Shown piece after piece: positions 2,188 to 62,328 of a stretch of DNA of 64,000 nt. Every line of letters starts with the position of its first letter. Within the stretch, counting starts at the first letter, position 1. The notes beneath the pieces are model-generated. The model was given only the letters and a program-made list of their open reading frames with translations, was not told the origin of the DNA and ran no database searches. Origin of the DNA: a virus. Both the position numbers and the translations under genes were made by a program. The stretch lies in UHGV virus genome UHGV-1374671; one strand, written 5' to 3'.

Positions 2188-3150
2188 ATGTATAACCAGG
2201 AAAAACTCGCTTCCATTTCGGAAGACATCAAGGCGAAGCTGCTCTCCGGCGATAAAGAGCTGCAGAAGACCGCCGGCCTTGCCGCCAGCGAATACTTCCG
2301 CACGGAAATCCGTGAAAACGGTATCCGCCGCCAGATCACCCCGCCGACCACTGTGACCCGTGAGAACTTCGACACCGTCGAAGACACGGACTTCCCGGTC
2401 ATGTTCGTTGAAATTGCGCCGAAATCGGCGGGCGCTCGCAAGGTGTCCTTCGAGACCGGTCCGCGCGGCAATGTCATTCACGGGAAGAAAGCCCGTGTCG
2501 AGTTTGCGCGTATCATGACGGAGAAGTACTCCATCGACAAGATCCGCCTCGAGACCTACAAGATGCCGATCCTCGACATCTTCTACGACCTGATGCTCAA
2601 AGACATCATGGACGTGGAAGACGAGGTCACCCTTGCGGTCGACAACGACATCGTCGGTACCGTCGACACCGTGAACGACGAGATGGGCTGCTGCCGTTTC
2701 GTCCATGCCGGCCCGCTCAGCCGCGATGCGATGGTCCACCTCAAGAAAGGCATGAAGGTCGCCCCGGGCAACCTGCAGCCGGCCAAGTTCCTGATGAACG
2801 ACCTGACCCACTGCGACTTCGGCGTCTTCGGACGTGACGTCGTCGGCGGTGACATGGCCCAGGAAATGTTCATCAACGGCGTCACCCTGACCAAGGTCCA
2901 GGGCGTCGACACCGTCGTCACGACCAAGAAGAACCTGGTCAAGGCCGACGAAGTGTTCATCTACACCGATCCGCGCTACTACGGTGGGTTCTACACCTAC
3001 AAAGACGTGGCGATGGTCGTGGACGAGAAGGACGACATCTGGTTGACCTTCTTCGCGCACGAAACGGTCGGTGCGTCGGTCATCAACGCCGCTGGCGTCG
3101 CCAAGGCGCTGCTCAACGGCACGCTGAAGGACTGGTACACCGGTCAGTAA
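2188..3150 (+). CDS. putative major capsid protein
   Basis: RBS AAGGAAGGAG; 320 aa; followed by a strong intrinsic terminator; gene order. Confidence 0.55.
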   Translation: MYNQEKLASISEDIKAKLLSGDKELQKTAGLAASEYFRTEIRENGIRRQITPPTTVTRENFDTVEDTDFPVMFVEIAPKSAGARKVSFETGPRGNVIHGKKARVEFARIMTEKYSIDKIRLETYKMPILDIFYDLMLKDIMDVEDEVTLAVDNDIVGTVDTVNDEMGCCRFVHAGPLSRDAMVHLKKGMKVAPGNLQPAKFLMNDLTHCDFGVFGRDVVGGDMAQEMFINGVTLTKVQGVDTVVTTKKNLVKADEVFIYTDPRYYGGFYTYKDVAMVVDEKDDIWLTFFAHETVGASVINAAGVAKALLNGTLKDWYTGQ

Positions 3151-3180
3151 GCGCACATTGATCTGACAAGATCGCAAATG

Positions 3181-3222
3181 AGGGGCTCTCGCTGCTGTAA
3201 ACAGTAAGAGCCCCTTATTTTG
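3181..3222 (+). terminator. rho-independent terminator after capsid gene
   Basis: AGGGGCTCT...AGAGCCCCT 9-bp stem followed by TTATTTTG. Confidence 0.7.
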
Positions 3223-3269
3223 TCCGTTATAGTAGGACTGCAATTCCCTATCACAGAAAGGATGTTACA

Positions 3270-4115
3270 ATGAATCAGTCTCCGATTTACACCGTGGTCA
3301 AAAACAACTCCAACGTCGACCGTACGATCCGCTGGACCGGTGAGGCGCCCATCTGGATCGGGGCCGGTGCAACCGTTGAAATTCCCTATGAGGCTTGGTC
3401 CAAAGCCGACCGCAACAAGCGCACTTCCATGATCGCCGACCTTCAGTCCGGAGCCACTTCCGTGTCTCTGAAAGTCCTGCAGGCGGATGGCTCCTATCTG
3501 GCTGTTCCGTATTCCGTGCCCACCATCATGACCAGCAAGTGCAGAGGCACTGCGACTGTCACGGTGAAGGACAAAGCTCTTGCCTTCAACGAGGACGACT
3601 CCCGTCACAATATCAAAGTCAAGTCCGGAGATGCTGAGAAGGCCGCTGAACATTACGGAGCCACCAAAGCCGCTGAAGAGCCCGTTACCGGAACTCGCAT
3701 CGAAGGTGCCAGCACCGATGGCTTCCAGAAGGACACTGATACGCTGGTGAAAAGCACCCGGGAAACGATTGCCGAAAGCGAGGCCCGTATGAAGGCCGAA
3801 GAAGAAGAGACCGCCGAGAAAGAGTCCCAGGCTGTTGAATCTGACACCGGAAAGCCTGTTGACGACGACAAGGATGACGAAAAGAACGATACCCAGGACA
3901 GCGCTTCCGATGGCGATGATGATGACAAGGAGGCCGAGCTGCCCGAGGATGCCGCCCGTAAGATCTTCGCTGAAAGCATCGCTGCGAAGAACTGGGAAGG
4001 AGCTCGTGGCGTCATGTGCACGTACTTTGGAGAGGACAAGGTCACCTTCAGCGCCAAGACCGTGTCTGCGATGAAGGACTGGGACGCCATTGTCGCCAAG
4101 TACAAGCTGGCGTAA
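3270..4115 (+). CDS. hypothetical virion protein with highly acidic D/E/K-rich central-C region
   Basis: RBS AAAGGATG; ORF 281 aa. Confidence 0.5.
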   Translation: MNQSPIYTVVKNNSNVDRTIRWTGEAPIWIGAGATVEIPYEAWSKADRNKRTSMIADLQSGATSVSLKVLQADGSYLAVPYSVPTIMTSKCRGTATVTVKDKALAFNEDDSRHNIKVKSGDAEKAAEHYGATKAAEEPVTGTRIEGASTDGFQKDTDTLVKSTRETIAESEARMKAEEEETAEKESQAVESDTGKPVDDDKDDEKNDTQDSASDGDDDDKEAELPEDAARKIFAESIAAKNWEGARGVMCTYFGEDKVTFSAKTVSAMKDWDAIVAKYKLA

Positions 4116-4537: not shown

Positions 4538-7500
4538 ATGGCGGAACAGGCCAAATACATAACTCTGAAGGACAACAAGCTCTCGTTAAAAGACTTGTTG
4601 ACTCAGATCAGTGCAGTGCTGGAAGATGGTGTTCCCGTACTGAAGATCACCAGCTCCATTCAGTTCTCCGATCAGGTGTCTGGTGTGGTTGGCGGTCTTC
4701 GGTACAACATGGAGACCTCCTCCGTCGAATACTCCAACGACGGAGGCGCCACATGGAATGCGCTGTCTTCGGAGTCGTTCTGGTGGGAGGCTGGAAAGTC
4801 TTACACAGTGGGCACTGTCGTACTGCACGCCACTGGCTGGTATGTATGCCGGATTGCAACGAACAACGCAATCCCAGGAACGTCCGCCGAATGGAACCTG
4901 CTCACTCCTGGCACGATTTTCCAATATGTCACCAGCTCTGCGCAACTGAAAGCGGCGCTGGAAACGGCGACCTCCAAAGTGACCATTATCATGAAGGGGG
5001 ACATCACCACTGCCGTCAGCGCCACTGTGACAGCCGGTACCGTTACGATTTATTCTGACGAGGCCACCACGATACGCAGCACGCTGACCATCGCGGCTCC
5101 GTCCAACGGTAACATTTACTGGCACTCTCAAGGAACCGAATTCAGTGGCGGTTCCATCACGATCACCAGCGGCACGCTGTGGATCGACAGGCTCAAGTGC
5201 ACGGTTGGCACCCAGGCAACGCTTACCGGCGACATCAAATATCAGCGCATCGACGGAACCTTCACCGGCGGCACAATCAACCGCTGGGTGGACATGGGAG
5301 TCGACGACCTGGTTCCTAAAGACCTGTCGACGCTGGAAGAGGTCGCTTACGCGGACGCGCTGAAGTTGTACGTGGACGCCGGCAACCAGTACGGGTATCT
5401 CACAATGGCCAGCTTTGCCACCAGAGTGGCCGAGCTGGCTGCGGCGTACTTCAACATTGATCTTACCGGCCCCCTCAGCTTGAAACCCAGTACGGCTCCC
5501 CGTGGCTATATCTTCTATGCCACGGACACTGGAGATTTGTACATCATGGGCGAGAACAACGTATGGGGGCCGCCCATTCATATCCAGGGGCCTGCTGGCG
5601 CTCAGGGGCAGATCGGCTACACCGTCATGCCAGCTGTCGACGCGGACGGCAATCTGTCCTGGAAGGCGATGCTCATCAACCAGACGGAAACTGGCCCTGA
5701 AGTGCCTCAGCCCGTCAACATCAAAGGCGCTGACGGCAAATCGGCTTTTGTGATCTGGAAAGAGGAGATGGGCAACCCAGGCAGCACCGTGGACGACTTC
5801 CTTGAAGCGCTGGGCATCGGTAATCGCCGCATGATCTTCACATATCTGGATGTGGTGGAACCCGACAAGAACGTCACCTTTCTTACCAAGTACCCGTTTA
5901 TCGCGGTGCTCGACAATATTGGTCTCCAATGGGAGCTGGCAAACGGTCGCGTTCATTACAACGACGATTCCGTCACCATCAACCTGACCGATGTGTACCA
6001 GGCCAAGGGGTTGGTGGATTCTCCTGCCAGCATCGACACAGGACTGGGAACATACGCACGGGACGTCACCAAGGATGCGGAAGGGGCTTTCGCCTGGTAT
6101 AATGCCCAGGTCGAGACTTCCACGCTGTTCACGGCCCTGCAAGAGCCTGCTGTGGCCTCGTATGCGTACACCAACCCTGAGCTTACTGAAAACCCTGTTG
6201 TCGTCAACGCGTACACACCGGAAGTCAAGTCTCCGACCATCGAAGGCAACTGGTACGGGTTGTTTGGCGGGGGTGGCGGCAATGATGGTGGTACCGGTGA
6301 TGTTGAGATCGTTGGAGTGGAAACCCTGCCCACCGGGTCCGACGCCACGTTGAAAGACACCCAGGAGAGCACCTCTCTTCATCGGAAGTACATCCTGGGC
6401 ATACCGGCGGGACCTACCGGATATTCATACAGCACTCCCAAGCCGTTCGATCTGACGGAAACGTATTATCCTCCCAGTGACGACCGCAGGTACTACACCA
6501 CGGTGCTGCACCAGGGAGGCACCTGGGTCTACATCGCCACCGAGGCATCCAGCGGACACACGCCTCCGGAGCTGCCTGCCACCAGCAATGAATGGTGGCA
6601 GCTGATAGCCAAACCTGGAGAAGACGGAGAGGATATCGGCAACGGGATCTCGGTTCATAAGTTCCAGACCAAGAAGCCGTCCTCCCAGTTGCAGCTTCAT
6701 CTCCAGATGATGCGGTCCCCGACTGGTGTGATCTCAGAGGCTGTGCTGTTCCTGGATACGCTGAACACGGCGGAAGACCGTGCAAAGGTACGGTGCTGGA
6801 ATCCGGAAACCACAGACTGGGAACTGATCACGGCAAACGGGTTCGGTCCGGTGTACAACAACAATCCGGTTAATGTGGACATGTCAGATACGAAACAGGA
6901 GCGATACCTGTTCTATCGCTGGGTAACAGCATCCAACACGTCGGCCACCTGGCAGTCCGCGATTTTCCCGAACTCAGGCACAATCGATTACCTGAACTCG
7001 CTTACGCCTGATGGGCATATCGACTTCACAGCGGCCAACCTGACGGACGGCAGGTATCTGCATCTGACTCCTGCCAGATTTGTACTGGCAGTCATCGACA
7101 ACAATGGAAAACAGTGGCCGTTGGCTTCCGATGAGGTCTCTTATGATTTCGTTACAGACGAGGTCATCGTTGATCTCCAGGGCGTGATGACCAGGTCTGG
7201 TGTGGAATCCATTGTCGGCACCTGGAAGCTGATCACCAACGTAGGTATCATGGAACAGCCTATTGTCGGGGATCACACGCACGACAACAAGCCGGCGCTT
7301 GATCTGATCGGGATCGACCTGCATGGGAACATCACCATCGACGGCGCCATCGTGGTTCCAGCCAACGAGCGCGGAGGCGGTCTGTATCTGATCGACCCGG
7401 AAAACTATGCCGACACCACTACGCTTGTGGATCCCGGCGAGTTTGCGGTGTCCATCGAGCTGGTGCGGCCAGGGGACTACAATGCCATCCGTATGTACCA

Positions 7501-52458: not shown

Positions 52459-53736
52459 ATGAAAATTGTACTGGCCGATACAGTGATCACTGTGTTCGGG
52501 TGGCTCAATGTGATGGATCAGATCGGAAAGTACAAGCTGAAGATCCGCAAGACTCCTCAGGAGATCCGTGAGGAGAAGGAGATCAGACGACAGCGGTACG
52601 GAAGCGACGCCCATAAGGTGAATCCTATGCGGTACGAAGATCGCACCGTGATCGCCAAGAATCCGTCTGATCCTACCATCGCATACTTTCTCCCAGGGCT
52701 GTGGCCACGGGTGAAAGGCTATCTGGATACGCAGAAGATTACATACGAAATCGAGGACAAAAGGGATCCTTCCATCAGGCCTGACCCGGACTATTCAAAA
52801 CTGGCCGGAGCGACATTGAGACCAGGACAGGATACCGCCTTGGCCCTGATTACGTCGTTGGATTGTGGGCTAATAAATACCAGCACGGCATGGGGAAAAA
52901 GCCATCTAATATCTTTTATATGCAAGGTTTATCCCACGCTTAACATTGTCGTCACCACTGGATCCACCACGGTGGTCTCAACTCTGTACGAATATCTGTG
53001 CAAGCAGCTGCCCGGCCAGGTCGGTTACCTGTACGCCAGGGGCAACACCACGCATGGAAAACGGGTGATTGTGACCACGCTGAAGTCGTTGCCGAACATC
53101 TCTCCTGAGCGCGTCCAGTTGCTGTTGTGCGACGAGTGTCATGCCTGCGGAGACAACGAGGCCGGCAGGGCAGTGTCCAAGTTTGTGTTCAGCCGCAGAT
53201 TTGGATTCTCCGCCAGTCCGATCCGCAATGACGGCTCCAGAATCGTTATGGAGTCCATCTTCGGACCTGAGATCATGAAGATGACCTACCAGGAGTCTGT
53301 TGACGTTGGAAACATCGTTCCCATGAAGTACCTGATGCTGCCTTGTCACAAAGGGCCAACCAGCTTGTGCGACAAGCCGGGCATGGACGATGTATTCAAG
53401 AAGCGCTTCGGGTACTGGTGCAACTACAACAGGAACAGGGCTATTGTGGAACTGGTCTACGACATCAAGCAGGTGTATGAGGGCCAGATTTTGATAATGG
53501 TCGGTTCACTGGAACACGCAATTCAGTTGCACATTATGCTGCCCTGGTTCAAGGTCGCTCATTATGGCGCAACTGACTTGGACGAACTCAAGAAAAAGAA
53601 GTTCTCCAAAGACAAATACTCCGACATTGACTTTTCTCAGTACAAGATGAGCCAGAAGCAGCTGGACATTATGCGGGCCGCCTTTGCAAAAGGTACGCTC
53701 AGGTACGTGATCTGCACCAAAGTGTTTAAACAAGGT
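52459..53736 (+). CDS. SF2 DECH-box DNA helicase, exon 1
   Basis: motif I TAWGKSHL, motif II DECH; ORF runs into intron and hits stop 24 nt inside it. Confidence 0.6.
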
Positions 53737-54002
53737 AAACATCAATGCCTCGCAGCATAGGAATGTGCTGTCGTGAGCCGCTTAATTGCTGGGAACTCCG
53801 ACCGGGTAATGCCGAGGACAATCAGCAGCGAAGTCCTGAAAAGTAGGAAACGTTCAACGACTATCCCTGCGGGGAGTACACGCAAGTGCGTGGAAACAGC
53901 GGCCACCCAGAACGGGTGAAGATATAGTCTGACCTTGCATGGTAACATGCAGCTGGATTAACAATCCGGGCTGAGCGTAACGAACTCAGTTGAACACAAA
54001 AG
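53737..54002 (+). ncRNA. group I self-splicing intron (266 nt, no ORF) in helicase gene
   Basis: AATTGCTGGGAA P3/P4-like element, UAGUC P7-like element, P1 pairing exon CAAGGU with intron GCCUCG giving G.U at 5' splice site, intron ends in G; exon junction restores helicase motifs V-VI in frame. Confidence 0.6.
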
Positions 54003-54756: not shown

Positions 54757-56215
54757 GGTTGAGCTGGCGTTCCTGTCCGTGATCGGATATCCTGAACTCA
54801 CTTCCAAGGCGCTGAAGCTGTGTGCTGACAAGGTGATCCTGTTCGATAAGAACACGCACCCTCATGTGAGCATGATGTGGTCTGTTTACCTGAACACGTT
54901 GAAGAAGTACAAGAAGAAGTTCGGGTTGAAGGTATCCCATGATCTCATTGCAGGCGACCTGGACGAGGCGATCAAGAACGACGAGGACATGCCTGAGGAG
55001 GTGTTGTCCAGTTGTGAGACCATTCTCAACCGACTGGTAACTGGTCAGCTGCCGTCCAGGGAGGAAGGCATCGCGTTGATCCAGTCTCTGGTGAACCTGG
55101 ATGCCAACCGCAAGATCAGCGCCCAGGTGCTGAAGAACGCGGATCTGGAGGCCATCCAGAAAACCCTGGATTCGTCGAAGCGGGTCATGACCATACTGGA
55201 CAACACAGAGGATCTGAACAAGGGCAGGATCCTGTTCAATCCGTTCAATGAGATCCAGAACCTGGCCAAGCACGTGGTGCGGATCCCGACAGGCATCAAC
55301 TTCCTGGACATCGCATCCAGCGGTGGAGGCCGGTCCCAGGAGCTGTGGCTTCTTCTTGGTCCGTCAGGAGGAGGCAAGTCGACGTTCTCTGTTCAGTATT
55401 CCGCATCGCAGGCTCTGATGGGCAACAATACGCTGTGGGTCACTTACGAGCAGAGCATGGAAGGAGACTTGGCCGAGCGACTTATCGCCAACGTGACGGA
55501 CTGCAGTCTGGATGACATCCGTGATATCGGGTTCGACAATTTGAGCCAGGATATCAGGAACAAGTTCTGGGCTGCTGTGAACGGCTCCGAGGAGCACCTG
55601 AAAGTGTTGGACATGACCAGAATGGAGTTCGACCAGGAAGATCCTGCCGATGACTCCGGCATCTACTCGGTATGGAAGCGCATCAAGGAGCTGAAAGCGG
55701 AGGGATGGAGCCCGAAGACGGTCCTCATAGACTGGTTCGGCGCAATGATGTCCATGATCGGAACTGTAACCGGTCAGGACTTGTCCAAGGCGTACAGGTT
55801 CCTGGCTCAGCATCAGATCGACATTGCCCGCAAGATGGTCAAGGACGAGGATATCATGTGCATCTTCACACATCAGACCGACATGCAGACACAGCATGCC
55901 AGGCCGACCTATCCTCCCGACAAGACCAACTCGAAGGACATGAAAGACCTGTGCAACTACATGGACATCGTTCTCACACTTGGAAACAGGGACAAGAACG
56001 ACATCCAGTATTTCAATGCGGCCAAAGCCCGTAAGGGCGCGTCCGTCCTGCAGACGGTGCAGCTCATTGGAGAGAAGGCCAGGTTCAAGAAAGCCGACGG
56101 CTGGCTTCCAAACCGGGATGGGAACTTCTACCGACCCTCGGATGAGTACACATCAGACGAGGACGACGATATACAAGACGAGACTGCAAGGTCGTATACA
56201 AGAGAGATCATGTAG
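54740..56215 (+). CDS. DnaB-family replicative helicase
   Basis: RecA-like domain: Walker A LLGPSGGGKSTF, YEQSMEGDLAERL; start at ATG 54740 is a guess. Confidence 0.55.
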   Translation: MQTLSKVELAFLSVIGYPELTSKALKLCADKVILFDKNTHPHVSMMWSVYLNTLKKYKKKFGLKVSHDLIAGDLDEAIKNDEDMPEEVLSSCETILNRLVTGQLPSREEGIALIQSLVNLDANRKISAQVLKNADLEAIQKTLDSSKRVMTILDNTEDLNKGRILFNPFNEIQNLAKHVVRIPTGINFLDIASSGGGRSQELWLLLGPSGGGKSTFSVQYSASQALMGNNTLWVTYEQSMEGDLAERLIANVTDCSLDDIRDIGFDNLSQDIRNKFWAAVNGSEEHLKVLDMTRMEFDQEDPADDSGIYSVWKRIKELKAEGWSPKTVLIDWFGAMMSMIGTVTGQDLSKAYRFLAQHQIDIARKMVKDEDIMCIFTHQTDMQTQHARPTYPPDKTNSKDMKDLCNYMDIVLTLGNRDKNDIQYFNAAKARKGASVLQTVQLIGEKARFKKADGWLPNRDGNFYRPSDEYTSDEDDDIQDETARSYTREIM

Positions 56216-56239
56216 TTTGGTTCGATTGTGACTTGACTT

Positions 56240-56272
56240 TTTTTCGTTTTGGTGTTATGTTGCGAACGAGCA
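56240..56272. promoter_or_regulatory. 10-bp stem hairpin GTTATGTTGC-GAACGA-GCAACATAAC preceded by TTGACTTTTTTT
   Basis: seen directly between DnaB-like gene and next ORF. Confidence 0.35.
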
Positions 56273-56299
56273 ACATAACCTGAACGAAGGAGGTCGGTC

Positions 56300-56701
56300 A
56301 TGAAACAACCCGAGTTCGAGAAGCTCTGTAAGGATCTGGCCCGCATATGGACCAGAAAAGACGGGGCCCTGGCGAAGCTGGGCAGCTGCTCTGAGAGCAC
56401 TGGCTCGTACATCTTGTGCATCGGAGCGAAGAACAATACAGGGTTCTCCGCTCACTATTGCGTTGTGTGGGAAGGAGACAACAAGGCGTTTGAAGGCCGT
56501 CTCCATTCCATCGAACTCAGAAAATTCCTCACATCGAAACACCTCTGTTTCGCAGAGGTAACCACTTCACGCATGCTGGATCAGAACAAGAAAGGTCTGA
56601 TCAACTGCTACGGAAAGAAGGAGTCGTGCTGCAAGCTGAACTGCTCTGTACGCGACAGGAAGCCGTTCCAGGTGACTGAGACGGTGGCAACCACTCTGTA
56701 G
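56300..56701 (+). CDS. hypothetical Cys-containing protein (133 aa)
   Basis: RBS GAAGGAGG. Confidence 0.5.
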   Translation: MKQPEFEKLCKDLARIWTRKDGALAKLGSCSESTGSYILCIGAKNNTGFSAHYCVVWEGDNKAFEGRLHSIELRKFLTSKHLCFAEVTTSRMLDQNKKGLINCYGKKESCCKLNCSVRDRKPFQVTETVATTL

Positions 56702-56747
56702 CGCTCCCGGTATTGCCGGGCAGCGTGCATGTCCGGGAGGAAAGCAA

Positions 56748-57878
56748 GTGTTGAACAAACCACTCTATGACACGCTTGTGCGCATGTTCAAGCGTGTCGA
56801 AATCGCCAACGAAGGGCAGCATGCACGGGTCAGCAGGAAAGCGGGTACCGTGTCGGCGTGGTGTATTGAAAGGAACAACGAACACGGTGAGCAGTACCGT
56901 GTGAATTGTCCTTTCTGCGACGACCGGAACAAGCACCTCTACATTTCGTATCTGTCCTACATTCGTCCAGTCGTGAACGGTCAGGTGCTTCAGGTAGGCA
57001 AATTGAGAGCCCAGTGCTTTCGCAGAGGCTGTCTGAAGAAGATTGAGAACAGAGAATGGCTCGAAGGGCAGATCGCTATGTACAGGTTAGCTCTTGGAGC
57101 AGGTGCGGAAATTCCAAACATTGAAATCTCGGAAACAGACTCGGAAACCCTTCCCAGATACGAGGTGTCGGACGACATTTCCGTGGATGGGTTCAAGACA
57201 TGGGTACCTGATTATGAGCCGATCACAGCGCAGTCCAGGAGTGACATTCTGGAGTACCTGGCGGCTCGTCGTGTGTCCATGGATGACGTGGAATGGATGA
57301 GACTCGGCTGGGGGCCTGTCAAGTCCCCGCGTTCAGGCAACTACCTGAACAACGGCAGTCCGTTCATTCTGATTCCGATGATACAGAACAACCAAGTGAA
57401 GGGCATCCAGGGCAGGTGCCTTCCCCAGTACCTGAAGGAGGACGGCATCAAATACTGGATTCACCCTGCCTGCAGAAAACGTACTGTTGTGCTGAACATC
57501 GACATTGCCAGACAGCTCGGCCTTGGTGTCGTCTGTGAAGGCGCTTTCGATGTGCTCAGCATTGGTAAACCGGGCGTATGCACCTTTGGACATACACCAT
57601 CAGAAACGCAAAGGCGGTTGCTTACCACGTTCTCACAGGGCATCATATGGTGTCCTGACACGGACGTGACGCCGAGGCTGAATCCTATTCAGATCGCCAG
57701 GGAGCATGTTGCTGTCTGGAACGCGTCCAATGCGTTTCCGAAAGGTGCGCACGTCGTAGAACTGTCCCAGAAAGATGCCGGCAGTATGTCCCGGCAGCAA
57801 GTATGGGAGGAGATCGTTTCCCAGGTTCCTGCTCATATGCAGGACTTCCTGCTGGAGAGGATCATCCCAAACCTATAG
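56748..57878 (+). CDS. DnaG-type DNA primase (CHC2 zinc finger + TOPRIM)
   Basis: CPFCDD...H...C zinc motif; TOPRIM EGAFDVLS...DTD; GTG start with GGAGG upstream. Confidence 0.6.
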   Translation: MLNKPLYDTLVRMFKRVEIANEGQHARVSRKAGTVSAWCIERNNEHGEQYRVNCPFCDDRNKHLYISYLSYIRPVVNGQVLQVGKLRAQCFRRGCLKKIENREWLEGQIAMYRLALGAGAEIPNIEISETDSETLPRYEVSDDISVDGFKTWVPDYEPITAQSRSDILEYLAARRVSMDDVEWMRLGWGPVKSPRSGNYLNNGSPFILIPMIQNNQVKGIQGRCLPQYLKEDGIKYWIHPACRKRTVVLNIDIARQLGLGVVCEGAFDVLSIGKPGVCTFGHTPSETQRRLLTTFSQGIIWCPDTDVTPRLNPIQIAREHVAVWNASNAFPKGAHVVELSQKDAGSMSRQQVWEEIVSQVPAHMQDFLLERIIPNL

Positions 57879-57895
57879 GAACAGAGGAGATCGAG

Positions 57896-58924
57896 ATGCA
57901 AGACTTAGGCGTCGTCGACGTCAGCATGCGGCACTTTGTCGGGCCGGTTCACATCCGGGTATGGGAGCCCGGAGATCCGTTCCCGACACTGGGGCCTTCC
58001 GTTGGCGTTGACACAGAAACCGAGCTGATCACGGACACGGTGAAGGACCCGCCGGTAGTTGTTACCGGCGTGTTCGACCCTGCGAACTCGAATTGCTGGA
58101 TCGTTTACTGGCAGCATACCGCAGCGTTCATGCGGGAGCTGAACAAGCGCGACATCCAGCAGAGGTACTTCAACGTCGGGTTCGACGAACAGGTGCTCGA
58201 CAACGAGGACGAGGAGAAGAGCCTTCTGACGGCTGTCGACGCAAGGCGGGTGCGTGATATGCAGATCCGCATTCACCTGCACGAGATCGCCACGCTGGGT
58301 TGGATCCGAGGCAATCTGTACAACCTGGCGGACTGTGCTCTGCACTTCCTGAATGTGACGCTGGACAAGGGTGATCCGGACGACTACGAGAACTCTGCAC
58401 GAATGACGTTTCGGCGGCATAATAAAGATGGGAGCGTTTATCGCATAACGGATGAACAGGCCAAATACCTGTGTTATGACTGCGCTTCCACCTGGGGTCT
58501 CGGAGAATCGGTACCGGAACAGCCAACCGAGGTGGAACATACCAAGGGCATGATCGTCCTGGCACACATCAGCACCAACGGCATTCAGGTCGACCCTGTA
58601 GTGTTCGACGCCATGGAGGAGAAGCTGTTCAAAGCCAGGGACGAGGCCAGGCTTCGTCTGCTGGCGTTTGGATTCCCAGATCCGTACAAGGACGTCAAGA
58701 AGGAGGCCGCAGCCGAGCGTCAGCTTTTCTACTCGGAATACAAAAAGCTGTGTGAATCGGCAGGACTGGAGTGCCATCTCGGCATGGAGGAACAGACACT
58801 CGATGACGAAGACGAAACCGTCATTCAGGTTCCTAAAATACCAAAGAAGGACTCTCTCAGGCTGATGGTCTGCTACCTGTATCGATGCTTCACGTTCGTA
58901 CACAATACCAAGAACGCGGCGTAG
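57896..58924 (+). CDS. family-A DNA polymerase N-terminal 3'-5' exonuclease domain (exon 1 or separate exo gene)
   Basis: Exo I VGVDTETELI, Exo III YLCYD; stop codon TAG coincides with first bases of intron-like sequence. Confidence 0.55.
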   Translation: MQDLGVVDVSMRHFVGPVHIRVWEPGDPFPTLGPSVGVDTETELITDTVKDPPVVVTGVFDPANSNCWIVYWQHTAAFMRELNKRDIQQRYFNVGFDEQVLDNEDEEKSLLTAVDARRVRDMQIRIHLHEIATLGWIRGNLYNLADCALHFLNVTLDKGDPDDYENSARMTFRRHNKDGSVYRITDEQAKYLCYDCASTWGLGESVPEQPTEVEHTKGMIVLAHISTNGIQVDPVVFDAMEEKLFKARDEARLRLLAFGFPDPYKDVKKEAAAERQLFYSEYKKLCESAGLECHLGMEEQTLDDEDETVIQVPKIPKKDSLRLMVCYLYRCFTFVHNTKNAA

Positions 58925-59247
58925 GTACCTTTGCGGCGTGAGCCGCATCGAAGAAGAAAGTGAATTGCTGGAAGCCTAAACCGGGAGTGTAGCCCGGCAT
59001 GGTAATCAGCAGCCAATCAACCGGATCGCTAAACTGGATTCAACCATCCAGCATGCACCGGGGAAAAGGTTCAACGATCATCGGGGTGTCCACCTGATAA
59101 GCGGCCCCGTTAGCGTGCAAGCGTGCGCGAAGTGCTCCGTGACGGGAAACCGTCACGATGATATGATCTGTGCTACCCGAAAGGGATAGGAAGCCCCAGC
59201 CTGATCAGCTGGATAAGCCGGGTGAGCGTAGCGAACTCACTTGAACA
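58900..59247 (+). ncRNA. group I intron ribozyme core homologous to helicase intron (5' part of IStron)
   Basis: blocks GTGAGCCGC, AATTGCTGG, CCGGG...GCCCGG, AATCAGCAGC, GTTCAACGA, CAGCTGGAT, GAGCGTAGCGAACTCACTTGAACA co-linear with 53737-54002; exact 5' splice site unresolved. Confidence 0.55.
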
Positions 59248-59272
59248 AGAACCATGAGGTCTTATGAATCGA

Positions 59273-59292
59273 CGTAAATTCTCACATTTACG
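59273..59292 (+). repeat. IS left-end subterminal hairpin CGTAAAT-TCTCAC-ATTTACG
   Basis: perfect 7-bp stem ~25 nt inside predicted left end. Confidence 0.5.
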
Positions 59293-59293
59293 C

Positions 59294-59321
59294 TTGATAT
59301 TGTTGACGTACATGCTATATT
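59294..59321 (+). promoter_or_regulatory. sigma-70-like promoter TTGATA-16-TATATT for tnpB
   Basis: seen directly; ~35 nt upstream of GTG start. Confidence 0.45.
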
Positions 59322-59355
59322 AGAACCAGGTACTATAATACACGGAAGTTTTGAA

Positions 59356-60462
59356 GTGATAAGCAGAGCTCATACAATCAAGCTGAAACCCAATAAAGCA
59401 CAGGCGATCATGCTGGCCAAGACGGCCGGTACTGCCAGGTATGCCTACAACTGGGGATTGGCCAAGTGGAATGAGCTGTACGAAGCCGGTGAGAAGTGCA
59501 GTGCTTACAGCCTGATGAAACTTTGGCAAGAAGGCAGACCTGACTGGGCATTGGAAGTGGGCGCTGCGTGTTTGCAGCGCCCGTTCATGCACCTGGAAGG
59601 CGCCTTCAAAGCGTTCTTCAGAGGACAGCGTAAGCACCCAACCTTTCACAAGAAGGGTTTGCGGGACGGGTTCTACGTCCCGAATACTCATTTCAAACTC
59701 CGTGGTAACAAGGTTCAGCTACCCAAGTGCGGACTTGTCAGAATGACCGAGCGTATTCGTTACGCGGATGTGAAGGTTGTTTCTTCGGCAGTCAAGCACC
59801 AGGCAGACGGCTGGTATGTCGTAATCCAGGTCGAGCTTGAAGAGGAACACAGAACCGAATCCGACTCTTTTGTCGGAGTCGATGTCGGATGTACCCAGCT
59901 CGCAACAGCGAGCGACGGTACGACCTGCTGCTCACCGGCCAAGCTCAAAGACCTGGAACGTCAGCTGAAACGTAGACAGCGCTTGCTGGCACGCAAAGCC
60001 AAGGGCTCCAACAATCGAGCGAAAGCGAGATTGAAGGTAGCCCGTACCTGGCAACGAATCAACAATATCAAACAAGACACAGCTCACAAGTTCACTGCAC
60101 TCATTGCCAAGAACCACGGCACTGTTTGCATTGAAAAGCTGGATGTGAAGAGTATGCAATCAGGAGACAACGCCCTCGTAAGAAAGGGCGTGCATAACTC
60201 CTGCATGTCGGAAATCCTGAGACAACTCAAGTACAAGTGTAACAACTTTATTGAAGTTGACAAGTATTTCCCGTCCAGTAAGACTTGTTCGAACTGTGGG
60301 CACATAAACGCTGAACTGACCCTTGGGGATCGCACGTATAATTGTCCGGGCTGCGGACTGAAAATCGACAGGGATCTGAACGCAGCGTTGAACCTCCGTA
60401 AGGAGGGTCTGAGGATTTACACGGTGGGTCACACCGGCAGTGCCTGTGGAGTTGCCCGGTAA
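59356..60462 (+). CDS. tnpB: TnpB (IS605 OrfB family RNA-guided endonuclease)
   Basis: RuvC-I VGVDVG, RuvC-II E in CIEKLD, zinc finger CSNCGH...CPGCG, RuvC-III DRDLNAALNL; N-terminal OrfB helix-turn-helix region; GTG start after GGAAG. Confidence 0.75.
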   Translation: MISRAHTIKLKPNKAQAIMLAKTAGTARYAYNWGLAKWNELYEAGEKCSAYSLMKLWQEGRPDWALEVGAACLQRPFMHLEGAFKAFFRGQRKHPTFHKKGLRDGFYVPNTHFKLRGNKVQLPKCGLVRMTERIRYADVKVVSSAVKHQADGWYVVIQVELEEEHRTESDSFVGVDVGCTQLATASDGTTCCSPAKLKDLERQLKRRQRLLARKAKGSNNRAKARLKVARTWQRINNIKQDTAHKFTALIAKNHGTVCIEKLDVKSMQSGDNALVRKGVHNSCMSEILRQLKYKCNNFIEVDKYFPSSKTCSNCGHINAELTLGDRTYNCPGCGLKIDRDLNAALNLRKEGLRIYTVGHTGSACGVAR

Positions 60463-60559
60463 CGGGCGGCGCTGAAGCAGGAAGATTCATAAGAATCGTG
60501 AACAGAACCACTCGGACGAGCCTGACGAGCTCCAGCTGTGTGCCGAGAACGTCAAAATC

Positions 60560-61453
60560 GTGTGCGAAATGGAGAAACCGTCACTGCGGAAAGACGCCAG
60601 GAACATGTACTCGAAGCTCCTGGAGGACTACGAGATCATGGCGTTCGACCAGGCCACCAAGGGAATCGTCATGCCGTCGTTTGTGGCGCATCTGATGGAG
60701 CACTACAACAAGCAGCGTGATTCCGGAGAGGTCGCAGCAAAGGGCTACGACTTCGGAGCCGCAGTCAAGTACGCCAGCGAGTACATCGACGATCATCCTG
60801 AATGGCTGTCGAAATCCGAGCAGATAGGTCCCAGCAAATTCTTCCAGAATCATGTGAAGGGCATCATGGAGGCCAATCCGAAGCTGGAGCTGGAGACCAC
60901 TCCCAAGAGTGGGGCAGTCAAGCTGACACTCAAGGACAAGTGGCGGTTGGAGGACAACGGCATCAAGGACAAGTTCTTGGATGCTTACATTGACTTCAAT
61001 CATTGCCAGAAATATTTAAGTACCTATATGAACCGTTTGTTCATCAAAGGGGATAATCGGATACATGCCAGGTTCACAAATATTTTGCGGACCGGACGTA
61101 CCAGCTGCACCGGACCTAACTTGCAGAATTATCCCAGCAGGGACAAGGTGTTTCCGTTGAAGAACATCTTCTGTCCTTACGATGGCATGCTGTTGTGTGC
61201 TACCGACTTCTCGTTTATTGAGTTGTGTGGCTTTGCCCAGTCCTGTTACAGCAGGTTTGGGTTCAGCGTTATGCGCGACGTCATCAACGCAGGTCTGGAT
61301 CCGCACCGCTGGTTCGCAGCGGTGATGGACAAGCTGATCAAGCCGGACCTGACGCACAAGGACGACCCGAAATGGGTCGCGGAACTGAAAGGATTTTTGA
61401 AAGCAAATGTAGACGATTCAAGACGACAAAAGGCCAAAATGGCCAATTTCGGT
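60560..61453 (+). CDS. family-A DNA polymerase palm/fingers segment (pre-motif A RIHARFTNILRTGRTSCTGPNLQNYP, motif A DFSFIELC, motif B RRQKAKMANFG)
   Basis: frame open from 60476 immediately after tnpB; ORF stops 6 codons after NFG inside motif B. Confidence 0.6.
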
Positions 61454-61672
61454 CGACCATCAAGGCCGAATTAAAACTGCGGAATTAAGCGGGGAACTCT
61501 CATTGAGACGATCCGAACCGAAGCCTGGAAGGGATTCCAGTCAGGGACAGAGCATACCGGCAGGGGAAGAACTCCCATCAGCCGACACGAGGCCGCAGCA
61601 ACTGGAGAAACAACTCTGGTTGAAAAGATATGCCGAGCTGTGTGGCGACATACAGAAGTGCTGGATAAAAAG
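61454..61672 (+). ncRNA. small group I-like intron (~215 nt) interrupting polymerase motif B
   Basis: interrupts conserved NFGxxYG motif with stops in all frames; shares GCGGGGAACTC and CGAAGCCTGGAAGGGATTCC blocks with the other two introns; boundaries approximate. Confidence 0.45.
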
Positions 61673-62328
61673 CCGGCACGATAACAAAACTGTTTCCAGG
61701 AGCACTGGGTGTCAAGACTTTCTACAGGAACTGCAGGGAGTCCGGCGTACACCTGACCATGGAAGAAGCTGAATTCATGCGGGATGCGTGGATCAGCACT
61801 TTCAAGGAAATGAAGTTCCACATGAAGCCAGAGAAGTTGCGTAACTCGACAGGGTTCGGCAACCAGTTCGGCTTCAGGGACGACGAAGAAGAGTACATCG
61901 ACCCGTCCGAGCAGGACAGGCAGTTGTACAGGGCAAAATTAATTAATGGAATGGTTAGAAACAGGTGCAGTTTCAATGCGGCCTGTAATATGCAATTCCA
62001 AGGGCTCGTGGCATTTGGCGCGAAGCTGGCAGGCTGGAATCTAGTAACTCACGGATACGAACATAGAGTAGTCAATTTCGTACACGACGAATTTCTGTAC
62101 TGCCTGTATCCGGAGGAGCTCAAGGTCCACATCCCTGTCATTGAGCGCCTGATGATCGACGGGATGAGAGTTGCCATCCCGGATGTTAAAGTAGGAGTGG
62201 AATCCAGCGTCATGCGTCATTGGGACAAGAAGGCGACGGAATTCCACGACGTGAAGTGGGACGAGCAGGGAAGACCGCTCATTGAAGAGCCGCTGTTCGT
62301 CCAGAGTGTTCTCAAAATGGCCCAGTAG
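61673..62328 (+). CDS. family-A DNA polymerase C-terminal segment (O-helix tail...motif C VHDE)
   Basis: KLFPGALGVKTF...EEAEFMRDAWISTF continues the post-motif-B region; HDEFLY = motif C. Confidence 0.55.

Follow-up and report, generated by a model that had tools for sequence, protein, structure and literature searches.

In the 64,000-nucleotide (nt) stretch of the virus genome UHGV-1374671 analysed here, referred to below as the window, the gene of a family A DNA polymerase is split into three open frames (57803-58924, 60476-61474 and 61759-62328), and the question is what lies between the first two of these and whether it is one element or two. A preliminary description had seen there an IStron-like chimera, a group I intron carrying a TnpB element, at 58900-60481. 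Our analysis leaves little doubt that a single composite mobile element, an IStron of the IS200/IS605 type, occupies 58883-60505 and consists of a ribozyme, a tnpB gene with a predicted promoter, and a putative omega RNA scaffold. The layout described earlier is borne out by five lines of evidence (an empty site, a recurring unit, covariation in the ribozyme, covariation in the scaffold and an intact TnpB), but the boundaries had to be moved, the right end by 24 nt outwards. The term chimera suits the evolutionary origin of the element but not its present state, in which both parts move as one.

Extent of the element and the in-frame join

The ends of the insert were obtained by comparison with contigs fetched for two polymerase homologues, P0003 and P0006 (contigs L088 and L089, respectively). 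L088 is collinear with the window on both sides of the insert, its nucleotides 1-2660 corresponding to 56214-58881 (94.8% identity) and 2662-3379 to 60506-61223 (91.5% identity), and a single base between the two blocks, the C at 2661, corresponds to T58882. As the match of L088 to the window breaks off after 58881 and resumes at 60506, the insert in the polymerase gene is exactly 58883-60505, or 1,623 nt. L089 is likewise empty at this position. With the arrow marking the site, the empty alleles read CTGCTATCTTTAC↓AACCATTCGGACGCGCC in L088 and CTGCTACCTGTAC↓AACCATTCGGATGCTCC in L089, and the window after joining reads CTGCTACCTGTAT↓AACCACTCGGACGAGCC.

Removal of this interval restores the gene. 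Exon 1 (57896..58882, plus strand) encodes the 3'-5' exonuclease part; its start, taken from the list of open reading frames (ORFs), fits the MQ(D/E)LG of the homologues, and its final codon is TAT, so the last exon base is U58882. Exon 2 (60506..61453, plus strand) begins at a codon boundary (AAC CAC TCG, NHS), as judged from the frames, the collinearity with L088 and a gap-free protein alignment. Joined, U58882 and A60506 are in frame (...RLMVCYLY↓NHSDEPDELQ...) and the ORF is open for 730 amino acids (aa) across the junction. For a query protein of 856 aa, made by joining 57896-58882, 60506-61453 and 61693-62328, many uninterrupted homologues of 836-875 aa, for example P0001 (861 aa), align without a gap over CYLY↓NHSDEP, and both P0003 (96% identical) and P0006 (81%) run on through it. 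We propose, from the sequence comparisons, that the 5' splice site lies after U58882 and that the intron ends at G60505, in which case the spliced RNA would be expected to read ...CTGTAT↓AACCACTCG.

These ends differ from the earlier ones in two respects. The TAG that closes the exonuclease ORF (58922-24) had been taken as formed at the junction; the ORF merely reads 39 nt into the intron, and the left end lies about 40 nt upstream. An exon ending at T58922 would lead to a stop or skip conserved residues, and L088 places the end at 58882/3, so a junction there was rejected. It had also been stated that no U-ending 5' exon gives an in-frame join to the sequence after the terminal intron G (omega-G), which the join of U58882 to the base after G60505 contradicts. 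The reopening of the polymerase frame at 60476, 14 nt past the tnpB stop, was described correctly. The pentamer AACCA follows both G59249, inside the element, and G60505; we treat this as chance because it is present in all copies of the element irrespective of the site.

A group I ribozyme at the 5' end

The 5' part of the element (58883..59249, plus strand) is a group I ribozyme core, recognised by a match to Rfam, by covariation and by homology to a second intron of the same phage. The earlier reading of this block as homologous to the group I intron in the helicase gene was upheld, the conserved blocks being common to both up to TTGAACA (59241-59247). In a search of 3.3 kb, Rfam Intron_gpI matched 58873-59189 with 26.3 bits (E=6e-4), under the gathering score of 50, and the sister copies scored from 29 to 65.4 bits.

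A structure consisting of P1, a P1 extension, P2, P3, P4-P6b, a P7 pseudoknot, P7.1, P7.2, P8, P9, P9.1 and P9.2 was built by hand and examined in an alignment of 11 full copies (the window, nine IStrons and one copy without an ORF). In this alignment 90.8% of the cells were paired, as against 33-45% when the partners were slid by one to three columns, and compensatory changes on both sides were found in 50 of the 88 pairs, a number equalled in none of 500 shuffles. Pairing reached 97-100% in P2 (58933-46), P7 (59074-80 with 59164-69), P7.1 and P7.2 (59082-59128), P8 (59139-56) and P9 to P9.2 (59173-59240), and was complete in P7, P7.1 and P7.2; compensatory changes occurred in all of these and in P1. 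P4-P6 (58966-59069) was placed from the hand-built structure, and P3 (58959-62 with 59133-36) is an invariant 4-bp pairing of AGUG with UGCU, the placement given by Rfam having been discarded for its mismatches. The helices are followed by an invariant UGAACAAG (59242-49), identical across the copies. The covariation indicates that the ribozyme is under selection. As P7.1 and P7.2 lie between P7 and the 3' strand of P3, the ribozyme is IA2-like, and all IStrons described so far belong to the IA2 subclass (PMC4227781).

P1 (58879..58928) connects the ribozyme to its insertion site. The last four to six exon bases and the first intron base pair with a sequence about 45 nt inside the element; in the window GUAU↓C (58879-58883) pairs with the internal guide sequence GGUAC (58924-58928), with an extension hairpin and a conserved UACACA loop between the strands, and the wobble U58882.G58925 marks the 5' splice site. 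The two strands covary among the copies: GUAUC with GGUAC in the window, and elsewhere GGAUC with GGUCC, GGAAUC with GGUUCC, GGUUC with GGACC, and GGGUUC with GGACCC. The pair at the splice site is U.G in 10 copies out of 11 and C.A in the eleventh; C.A is the pair of the copy without an ORF in L084 (exon GGGAC↓C, guide sequence GAUCCC), a double change from U.G. Two other candidates for P1 were rejected. In GCGGCGU with GAGCCGC the second strand is the 3' strand of P2 (100% paired, with compensatory change in six pairs), and a pairing of ACCUGU with GUAGGU, with splicing after U58880, is out of frame and shows no covariation.

TnpB and the insertion sequence part

The insertion sequence (IS) part begins with a left-end region (59252..59293, plus strand) that is common to intron-less copies of the same TnpB insertion sequence, the homology of locus L007 starting near here (CCACGAGGTC...). 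The perfect 7-bp hairpin described earlier, CGTAAAT with ATTTACG, is present at 59273-59292. It is followed, between the ribozyme and tnpB, by a predicted sigma-70-like promoter (59294..59321, plus strand): the reported TTGATA and TATATT hexamers, spaced by 16 nt and with an extended TG, have 10 of 12 consensus matches, and their positions are kept across the copies as invariant alignment columns.

The tnpB gene (59356..60462, plus strand, GTG start) encodes 368 aa, and the profile search agrees with the earlier call of an intact TnpB (Pfam OrfB_IS605 1e-23, Cas12f1-like_TNB 7e-18, HTH_OrfB_IS605 5e-15). The protein aligns over its full length to ISDra2 TnpB (8bf8/8exa) with E=1.6e-44. The RuvC residues D176, E260 and D340 and the zinc finger cysteines C311, C314, C330 and C333 are all present; D176 aligns with D191 of ISDra2, and E260 and D340 lie within motifs matching EHL and DRDEN, their counterparts in the numbering of ISDra2 being presumably E278 and D361. 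Judged from these residues, TnpB is catalytically intact. In the annotated phage and species-genome collections searched, no protein is more than about 36% identical to it, except for those on two short metagenome contigs. In the scan of GTDB genomes, the nearest TnpB proteins (59-60% identical) came from metagenome-bin contigs of 4-5 kb, which contain the intron as well and are probably of phage origin. No other ORF of the element has a family match, and no LAGLIDADG, GIY-YIG, HNH or similar endonuclease was matched in the window intron.

The right end as a predicted omega RNA scaffold

The last 128 nt of the element (60378..60505, plus strand), overlapping the 3' end of tnpB, have the properties of an omega RNA scaffold that coincides with the transposon right end. 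In 16 copies, including two miniature elements, two copies without an ORF and one solitary right end, 94.3% of the cells were paired as against 41-45% with the partners slid, and compensatory changes were found in 17 of 28 pairs, which none of 500 shuffles equalled. Three hairpins (60422-36, 60451-70 and 60484-97) and a stem enclosing the second of them (60443-47 with 60477-81) make up four helices that are paired in 94-100%. These are followed by an invariant GUGAACAG (60498-60505), whose last base, the proposed omega-G, is G60505 in the window and invariant across the copies. Every close copy ends ...GTGAACAG and the distant ones GTGACAG, unrelated flanks following, and the right-end pattern of the family is AAGAATCGTGAACAG. 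Since the miniatures retain exactly 60364-60505, the scaffold is suggested to be about 130-140 nt long.

The block stops at the last base of the element, where the scaffold of a TnpB guide RNA would lie, and from its position and covariation we infer that it is such a scaffold. According to the known geometry of TnpB guides and the fixed right end, the guide portion would be the first 16 nt or so of exon 2 (60506..60521, plus strand), AACCACTCGGACGAGC. It is proposed that G60505 is at the same time the right end of the transposon and the terminal G of the intron.

Spread of the composite unit

The same intron, tnpB and right end were found at nine further loci among relatives of the TnpB in IMG/VR (L001-L004, L006, L010-L012 and L014), and L008 is an additional copy interrupted by the contig end. 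Similarity of the nine loci to the window starts between 58863 and 58949 and is unbroken in most of them to 60505/60506; in L002 and L004 it extends about 15-20 nt further. The left-end sequence is common to the copies from ...T↓C(G/A)A onward, and the inner junction between the ribozyme and the IS part is also identical in the nine further copies. There is no target duplication at the unrelated insertion sites, and precise excision restores plus-strand ORFs of 146-934 aa at eight of the nine other sites.

Several of the copies are informative about how the element has moved. L002 carries it at the same polymerase site in a divergent phage, where the element is 84.5% identical to that of the window and the flanking exons only 53-62%. 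Its presence in L002, together with its absence from L088, where the flanks are 91-95% identical to those in the window, is the pattern typical of an intron that spreads horizontally. In L003 the IStron lies after base 3516, at another position of another family A polymerase (...DPFLEAY↓VAYKHREK) in a different phage, and L006 and L014 have IStrons at two positions of one homologous gene family. At least five copies, including four full IStrons, are present on one phage contig, and at least four on a second contig.

The bases in front of the element differ among clades. In the clade of the window (TnpB at least 77% identical) the five preceding bases are TGTAT in three copies, CGTAT and AGTAT, so that GTAT always precedes the element, at four independent sites. 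In the sister clades they are CGGAT, GGAAT, AGGTT, GGGAT and GGGTT, that is, G(G/A)(A/T)T, and across the clades only the final T is common, mostly preceded by A or T.

Reduced forms of the element were also present. IStrons without an ORF, with the full ribozyme and right end, are found in L084 (about 985-1508, and 1-179) and L078 (about 3217-3721), the latter keeping also the promoter-like site. Miniatures about 95% identical to the window element (L081 1260-1528, L086 3146-3420 on the reverse strand, and L072 9640-9902) have P1 to P6 fused directly to the last 143 nt and keep both ends; with P7 to P9 and tnpB deleted, they are unable to self-splice. In addition, the insertion sequence is present without the intron in three loci (L005, L007 and L009), where homology to the window sets in near 59252; the flanks of these three copies (AGGAT, or adjacent to apparent tRNA 3' ends) yield neither a left end nor a single target motif. 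Inspected by eye, the intron-less copies in L005 and L009 are just after apparent tRNA 3' ends. Solitary right-end scaffolds with neither tnpB nor intron were seen in L005 (3613-3719), adjoining tRNA-like sequences, and in L073 (reverse strand, ending at 2218).

Proposed mechanism and points against it

In the mechanism that we propose, transcription of the polymerase gene passes through the element, the ribozyme guide GGUAC would pair with the exon end GUAU↓C, and cleavage would take place after U58882. The joining of U58882 to A60506 would then give the 856-aa family A polymerase, provided that the probable small intron at 61454-61692 is taken out as well. Unspliced transcripts would include tnpB and the scaffold, with about 16 nt of exon 2 remaining attached, and those from the predicted internal promoter (59294-59321) would likewise carry tnpB, the scaffold and the exon-2 guide, these latter being unable to splice because they contain no ribozyme. 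TnpB loaded with this RNA would cut element-free polymerase alleles at (N)GTAT followed by AACCACTCGGACGAGC, and in a co-infection the break would be repaired on a genome that has the element, so that the cut allele would acquire it, which would be homing. Because the guide lies in exon 2 and splicing severs it from the scaffold, splicing and guide-RNA production would be mutually exclusive for each molecule. A competition between the two is thus expected from the geometry of the element and from published work, as a conflict of this kind has been described in other IStrons (bioRxiv 10.1101/2023.11.20.567912).

A wider reading, tentative and a little short of probable, is that TnpB and its guide RNA have replaced the protein homing endonuclease of a phage group I intron, that the composite spreads without a transposase by RNA-guided cutting of intron-less alleles, and that it adapts as the ribozyme guide co-evolves with the exon. 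If homing by TnpB is real, the empty alleles in close relatives would be either resistant or not yet invaded. The L088 allele reads TTTAC+AACCATTCGGACGCGC (motif and would-be target), and both empty alleles have C for T at the last position before the site (TAC versus TAT) and two to three mismatches within the 16-nt target; they may therefore be poor targets for TnpB. The term intron homing by TnpB has been used in a review as implied but untested (PMC13565253), and the multi-copy phage family found here is a natural system that makes RNA-guided intron homing testable in a phage cross. It offers occupied and empty alleles in phages that are about 93% identical, and an element far more conserved than its host gene between divergent phages.

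Several observations weigh against the composite element or its proposed workings. The bases preceding the element vary (GTAT, GGAT, GAAT, GGTT, AGT), which is unusual for the fixed target motif of a TnpB or TnpA. The would-be guides of the two copies at the same polymerase site, those of the window and L002, differ at 5 of 16 positions, and as a result simple guide-directed homing between these two phages would fail. No tblastn match below E=1 to Y1 TnpA was obtained in the window or in loci L001-L024, the queries being IS608 and an ISDra2-like core and complete contigs not being searched; the fetched loci covered 14 full-length tnpB copies (the nine other IStrons, L008, L013 and three stand-alone insertion sequences). 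The element lengths of only 1621-1643 nt leave no room for tnpA, and with no tnpA found around any copy the route of the unit to new sites is unexplained. As for the ribozyme, the Rfam score of the window copy is 26.3 bits against a gathering threshold of 50, at which the search missed the intron in the polymerase insert. P3 is weak, and its four invariant pairs leave it unproven. P10, between the 3' exon and bases 5' of the guide sequence, and P9.0 were looked for in the intron and nothing convincing was found, which leaves unexplained how G60505 would be brought to the active site from 1.25 kb away.

The invariant UGAACAAG at 59242-59249 is a further difficulty, as it is similar to the sequence with which the cargo-less helicase intron ends and could be used as a competing 3' splice site, proximal to the ribozyme. 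Use of this proximal site could give ...CYLY-NHEVL-stop, a product with the exonuclease only; alternatively, the sequence may be a relic of the ancestral intron end. It can also be observed that the internal UGAACAAG↓AACCA (59242-59254) resembles the real 3' end, GUGAACAG↓AACCA (60498-60510).

Alternative explanations

Both parts of the element exist alone, and it could be thought that a group I intron of the polymerase gene was later hit near its 3' end by an independent TnpB insertion sequence, with the two still behaving separately. The cargo-less helicase intron ends ...UUGAACACAAAAG, the inner junction of the IStron keeps the invariant UGAACAAG, and intron-less copies of the insertion sequence, with homology from near 59252, are known from L005, L007 and L009. 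Such a nesting is probably how the family arose. For the present element, however, we find separate behaviour unlikely: the fused unit has the same inner junction and the same outer ends at nine further sites, its outer right end is the only in-frame 3' splice site, deletion derivatives retain the outer ends, and the empty alleles are without both parts together.

It could also be argued that TnpB has been domesticated and serves as an RNA-guided regulator or a maturase-like splicing factor instead of a nuclease that drives mobility. This would be in line with the lack of tnpA beside any copy, and in another IStron the binding of TnpB near the 3' splice site is known to affect splicing. The D/E/D triad and the zinc finger are nevertheless intact, the guide is different at each site, and the element is polymorphic between near-identical phages and common to divergent ones, which is the signature of an active selfish element and makes domestication highly improbable. 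Still less credible is an insert that is not spliced, with two proteins made from the exonuclease and polymerase parts and an intron-like block that survives as a relic. Some phages do have split polymerases, the exonuclease ORF has a stop of its own (TAG 58922) and there are GTG codons past 60505. But a relic would not show the many compensatory changes in the helices, the 5' end of exon 2 has no plausible start, and uninterrupted homologues align without a gap to the join, which is exactly in frame, in-frame restoration being found at other insertion sites as well.

Comparison with known IStrons, transposons and phage introns

Descriptions of IStrons go back to 2000, and the way in which splicing conflicts with the guide RNA in them was worked out in 2023-24, so the class itself is already known; what is new is the phage-borne family. 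The composite element of the window is closest in its organisation to the group A IStrons (CdISt1 of Clostridioides difficile and relatives, an IA2 intron with IS200/IS605), which have the same layout with the ribozyme at the 5' side and tnpB (ORF B) at the 3' side. As here, the ends of group A elements are the splice sites, the 5' exon ends in a U whose U.G pair has base pairs on either side of it in P1, the target is not duplicated and the specificity is on the 5' side only, copies are present in many unrelated genes, tnpA is often missing, and the 3' end is ...CAG (PMC4227781). In contrast, group A IStrons sit in chromosomes of Firmicutes and Fusobacteria and the window family in uncultured phages. 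Group A elements are preceded by TTGAT, ATTAT or TTTAT, whereas the motif is (N)GTAT in the window family and G(G/A)(A/T)T in its sister clades, and the 3' terminus is TCAG in group A and ACAG here, with only CAG in common. In the window family the internal guide sequence differs among the copies and covaries with the exon, and no copy was found with tnpA or a remnant of it, which also sets the family apart from group A.

The IS607-type CboIStron (group B, including CbISt3 and CbISt4 of Clostridium botulinum phages) is the same kind of composite of intron, TnpB and omega RNA, in which splicing severs the guide from the scaffold as we propose here, and it is a precedent for IStrons in phage genomes. 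It differs in having a serine TnpA, insertion after GG (TGGG), G as the last exon base and the end CGG, whereas the window element has a U-ending exon and an ISDra2-like TnpB. ISDra2 itself shares with our element the full-length homology and RuvC triad of TnpB and a scaffold that begins within the 3' part of tnpB and extends as far as the right end; unlike the window element, it contains tnpA but no intron, and its motif is TTGAT. The ISDra2 scaffold is over 200 nt, longer than the conserved scaffold of about 130-140 nt in the window family.

Group I introns that carry protein homing endonucleases, such as those of the T4 td/I-TevI type and of Twort, are likewise located in conserved DNA-metabolism genes of phages, are present or absent among close relatives and are shared between divergent phages. 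The cargo of the window intron is instead an RNA-guided nuclease with its guide, and the choice of target would follow the flanking exon and not a fixed site recognised by a protein. In a survey from 2014, IStrons were confined to Firmicutes, Fusobacteria and two C. botulinum phages, the latter with elements of the IS607 group. Our results add to the IS200/IS605-type IStrons a family that multiplies within large uncultured phages, which are probably virulent, with copies at different positions of family A polymerase genes. Within this one phage group, one ribozyme is found in three states of cargo: none in the helicase gene, a GIY-YIG endonuclease in the polymerase of L088, and TnpB with its guide RNA.

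The host phage and other elements in its replication genes

The window phage encodes a terminase large subunit and a baseplate wedge protein, and most of its large ORFs have no PHROG match. It has almost no annotated relatives, no similar record being present in INPHARED; a scan of GTDB genomes gave no host, and a peptide-pattern scan of IMG/VR with polymerase exon 2 gave no match. The phages that host the family are large, uncultured and probably virulent.

The cargo-less group I intron of the SF2 helicase gene, a member of the same ribozyme family as the IStron, was matched by Rfam with 88 bits at 53727-53952. Its splice sites were read as CAAGGU↓AAAC...CAAAAG↓GUUGAU (53737-54002), and its removal is in frame (...TKVFKQG↓VDFKALTVLFRGDG). 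A second intervening sequence of the polymerase gene, 239 nt at 61454-61692, splits motif B (NFG↓FPGALG) and has a candidate P1 of UUCGGU with GGCCGAA. Rfam gave no match for 61454-61692, and 61621-61689 matches the last 69 nt of an endonuclease-carrying intron that interrupts the gene for the large terminase in Staphylococcus phage BESEP2 and related phages; because of this match it is probably another group I intron.

Although empty at the IStron site, the polymerase gene of L088 has an intron elsewhere. A 1,231-nt group I intron (L088 3380-4610, Rfam 41.7 bits) is inserted at the position that corresponds to 61223/61224 of the window (DFSFIE↓LC); it is 77% identical to window 58954-59073, belongs to the ribozyme family of the IStron and carries a GIY-YIG endonuclease gene instead of TnpB. 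L089 has an intron of the same ribozyme family at the same DFSFIE↓LC site. Where the window has just the 239-nt intron in motif B, about 920 extra bases were seen in L088 (4843-5764), including a 341-aa ORF (4904-5929), and they may represent an intron-borne gene. In L089, the upstream gene (1-2322) has Pfam matches to Hom_end_hint and Hom_end, which suggests an intein that includes a homing endonuclease and would be a further selfish element of the same replication module.

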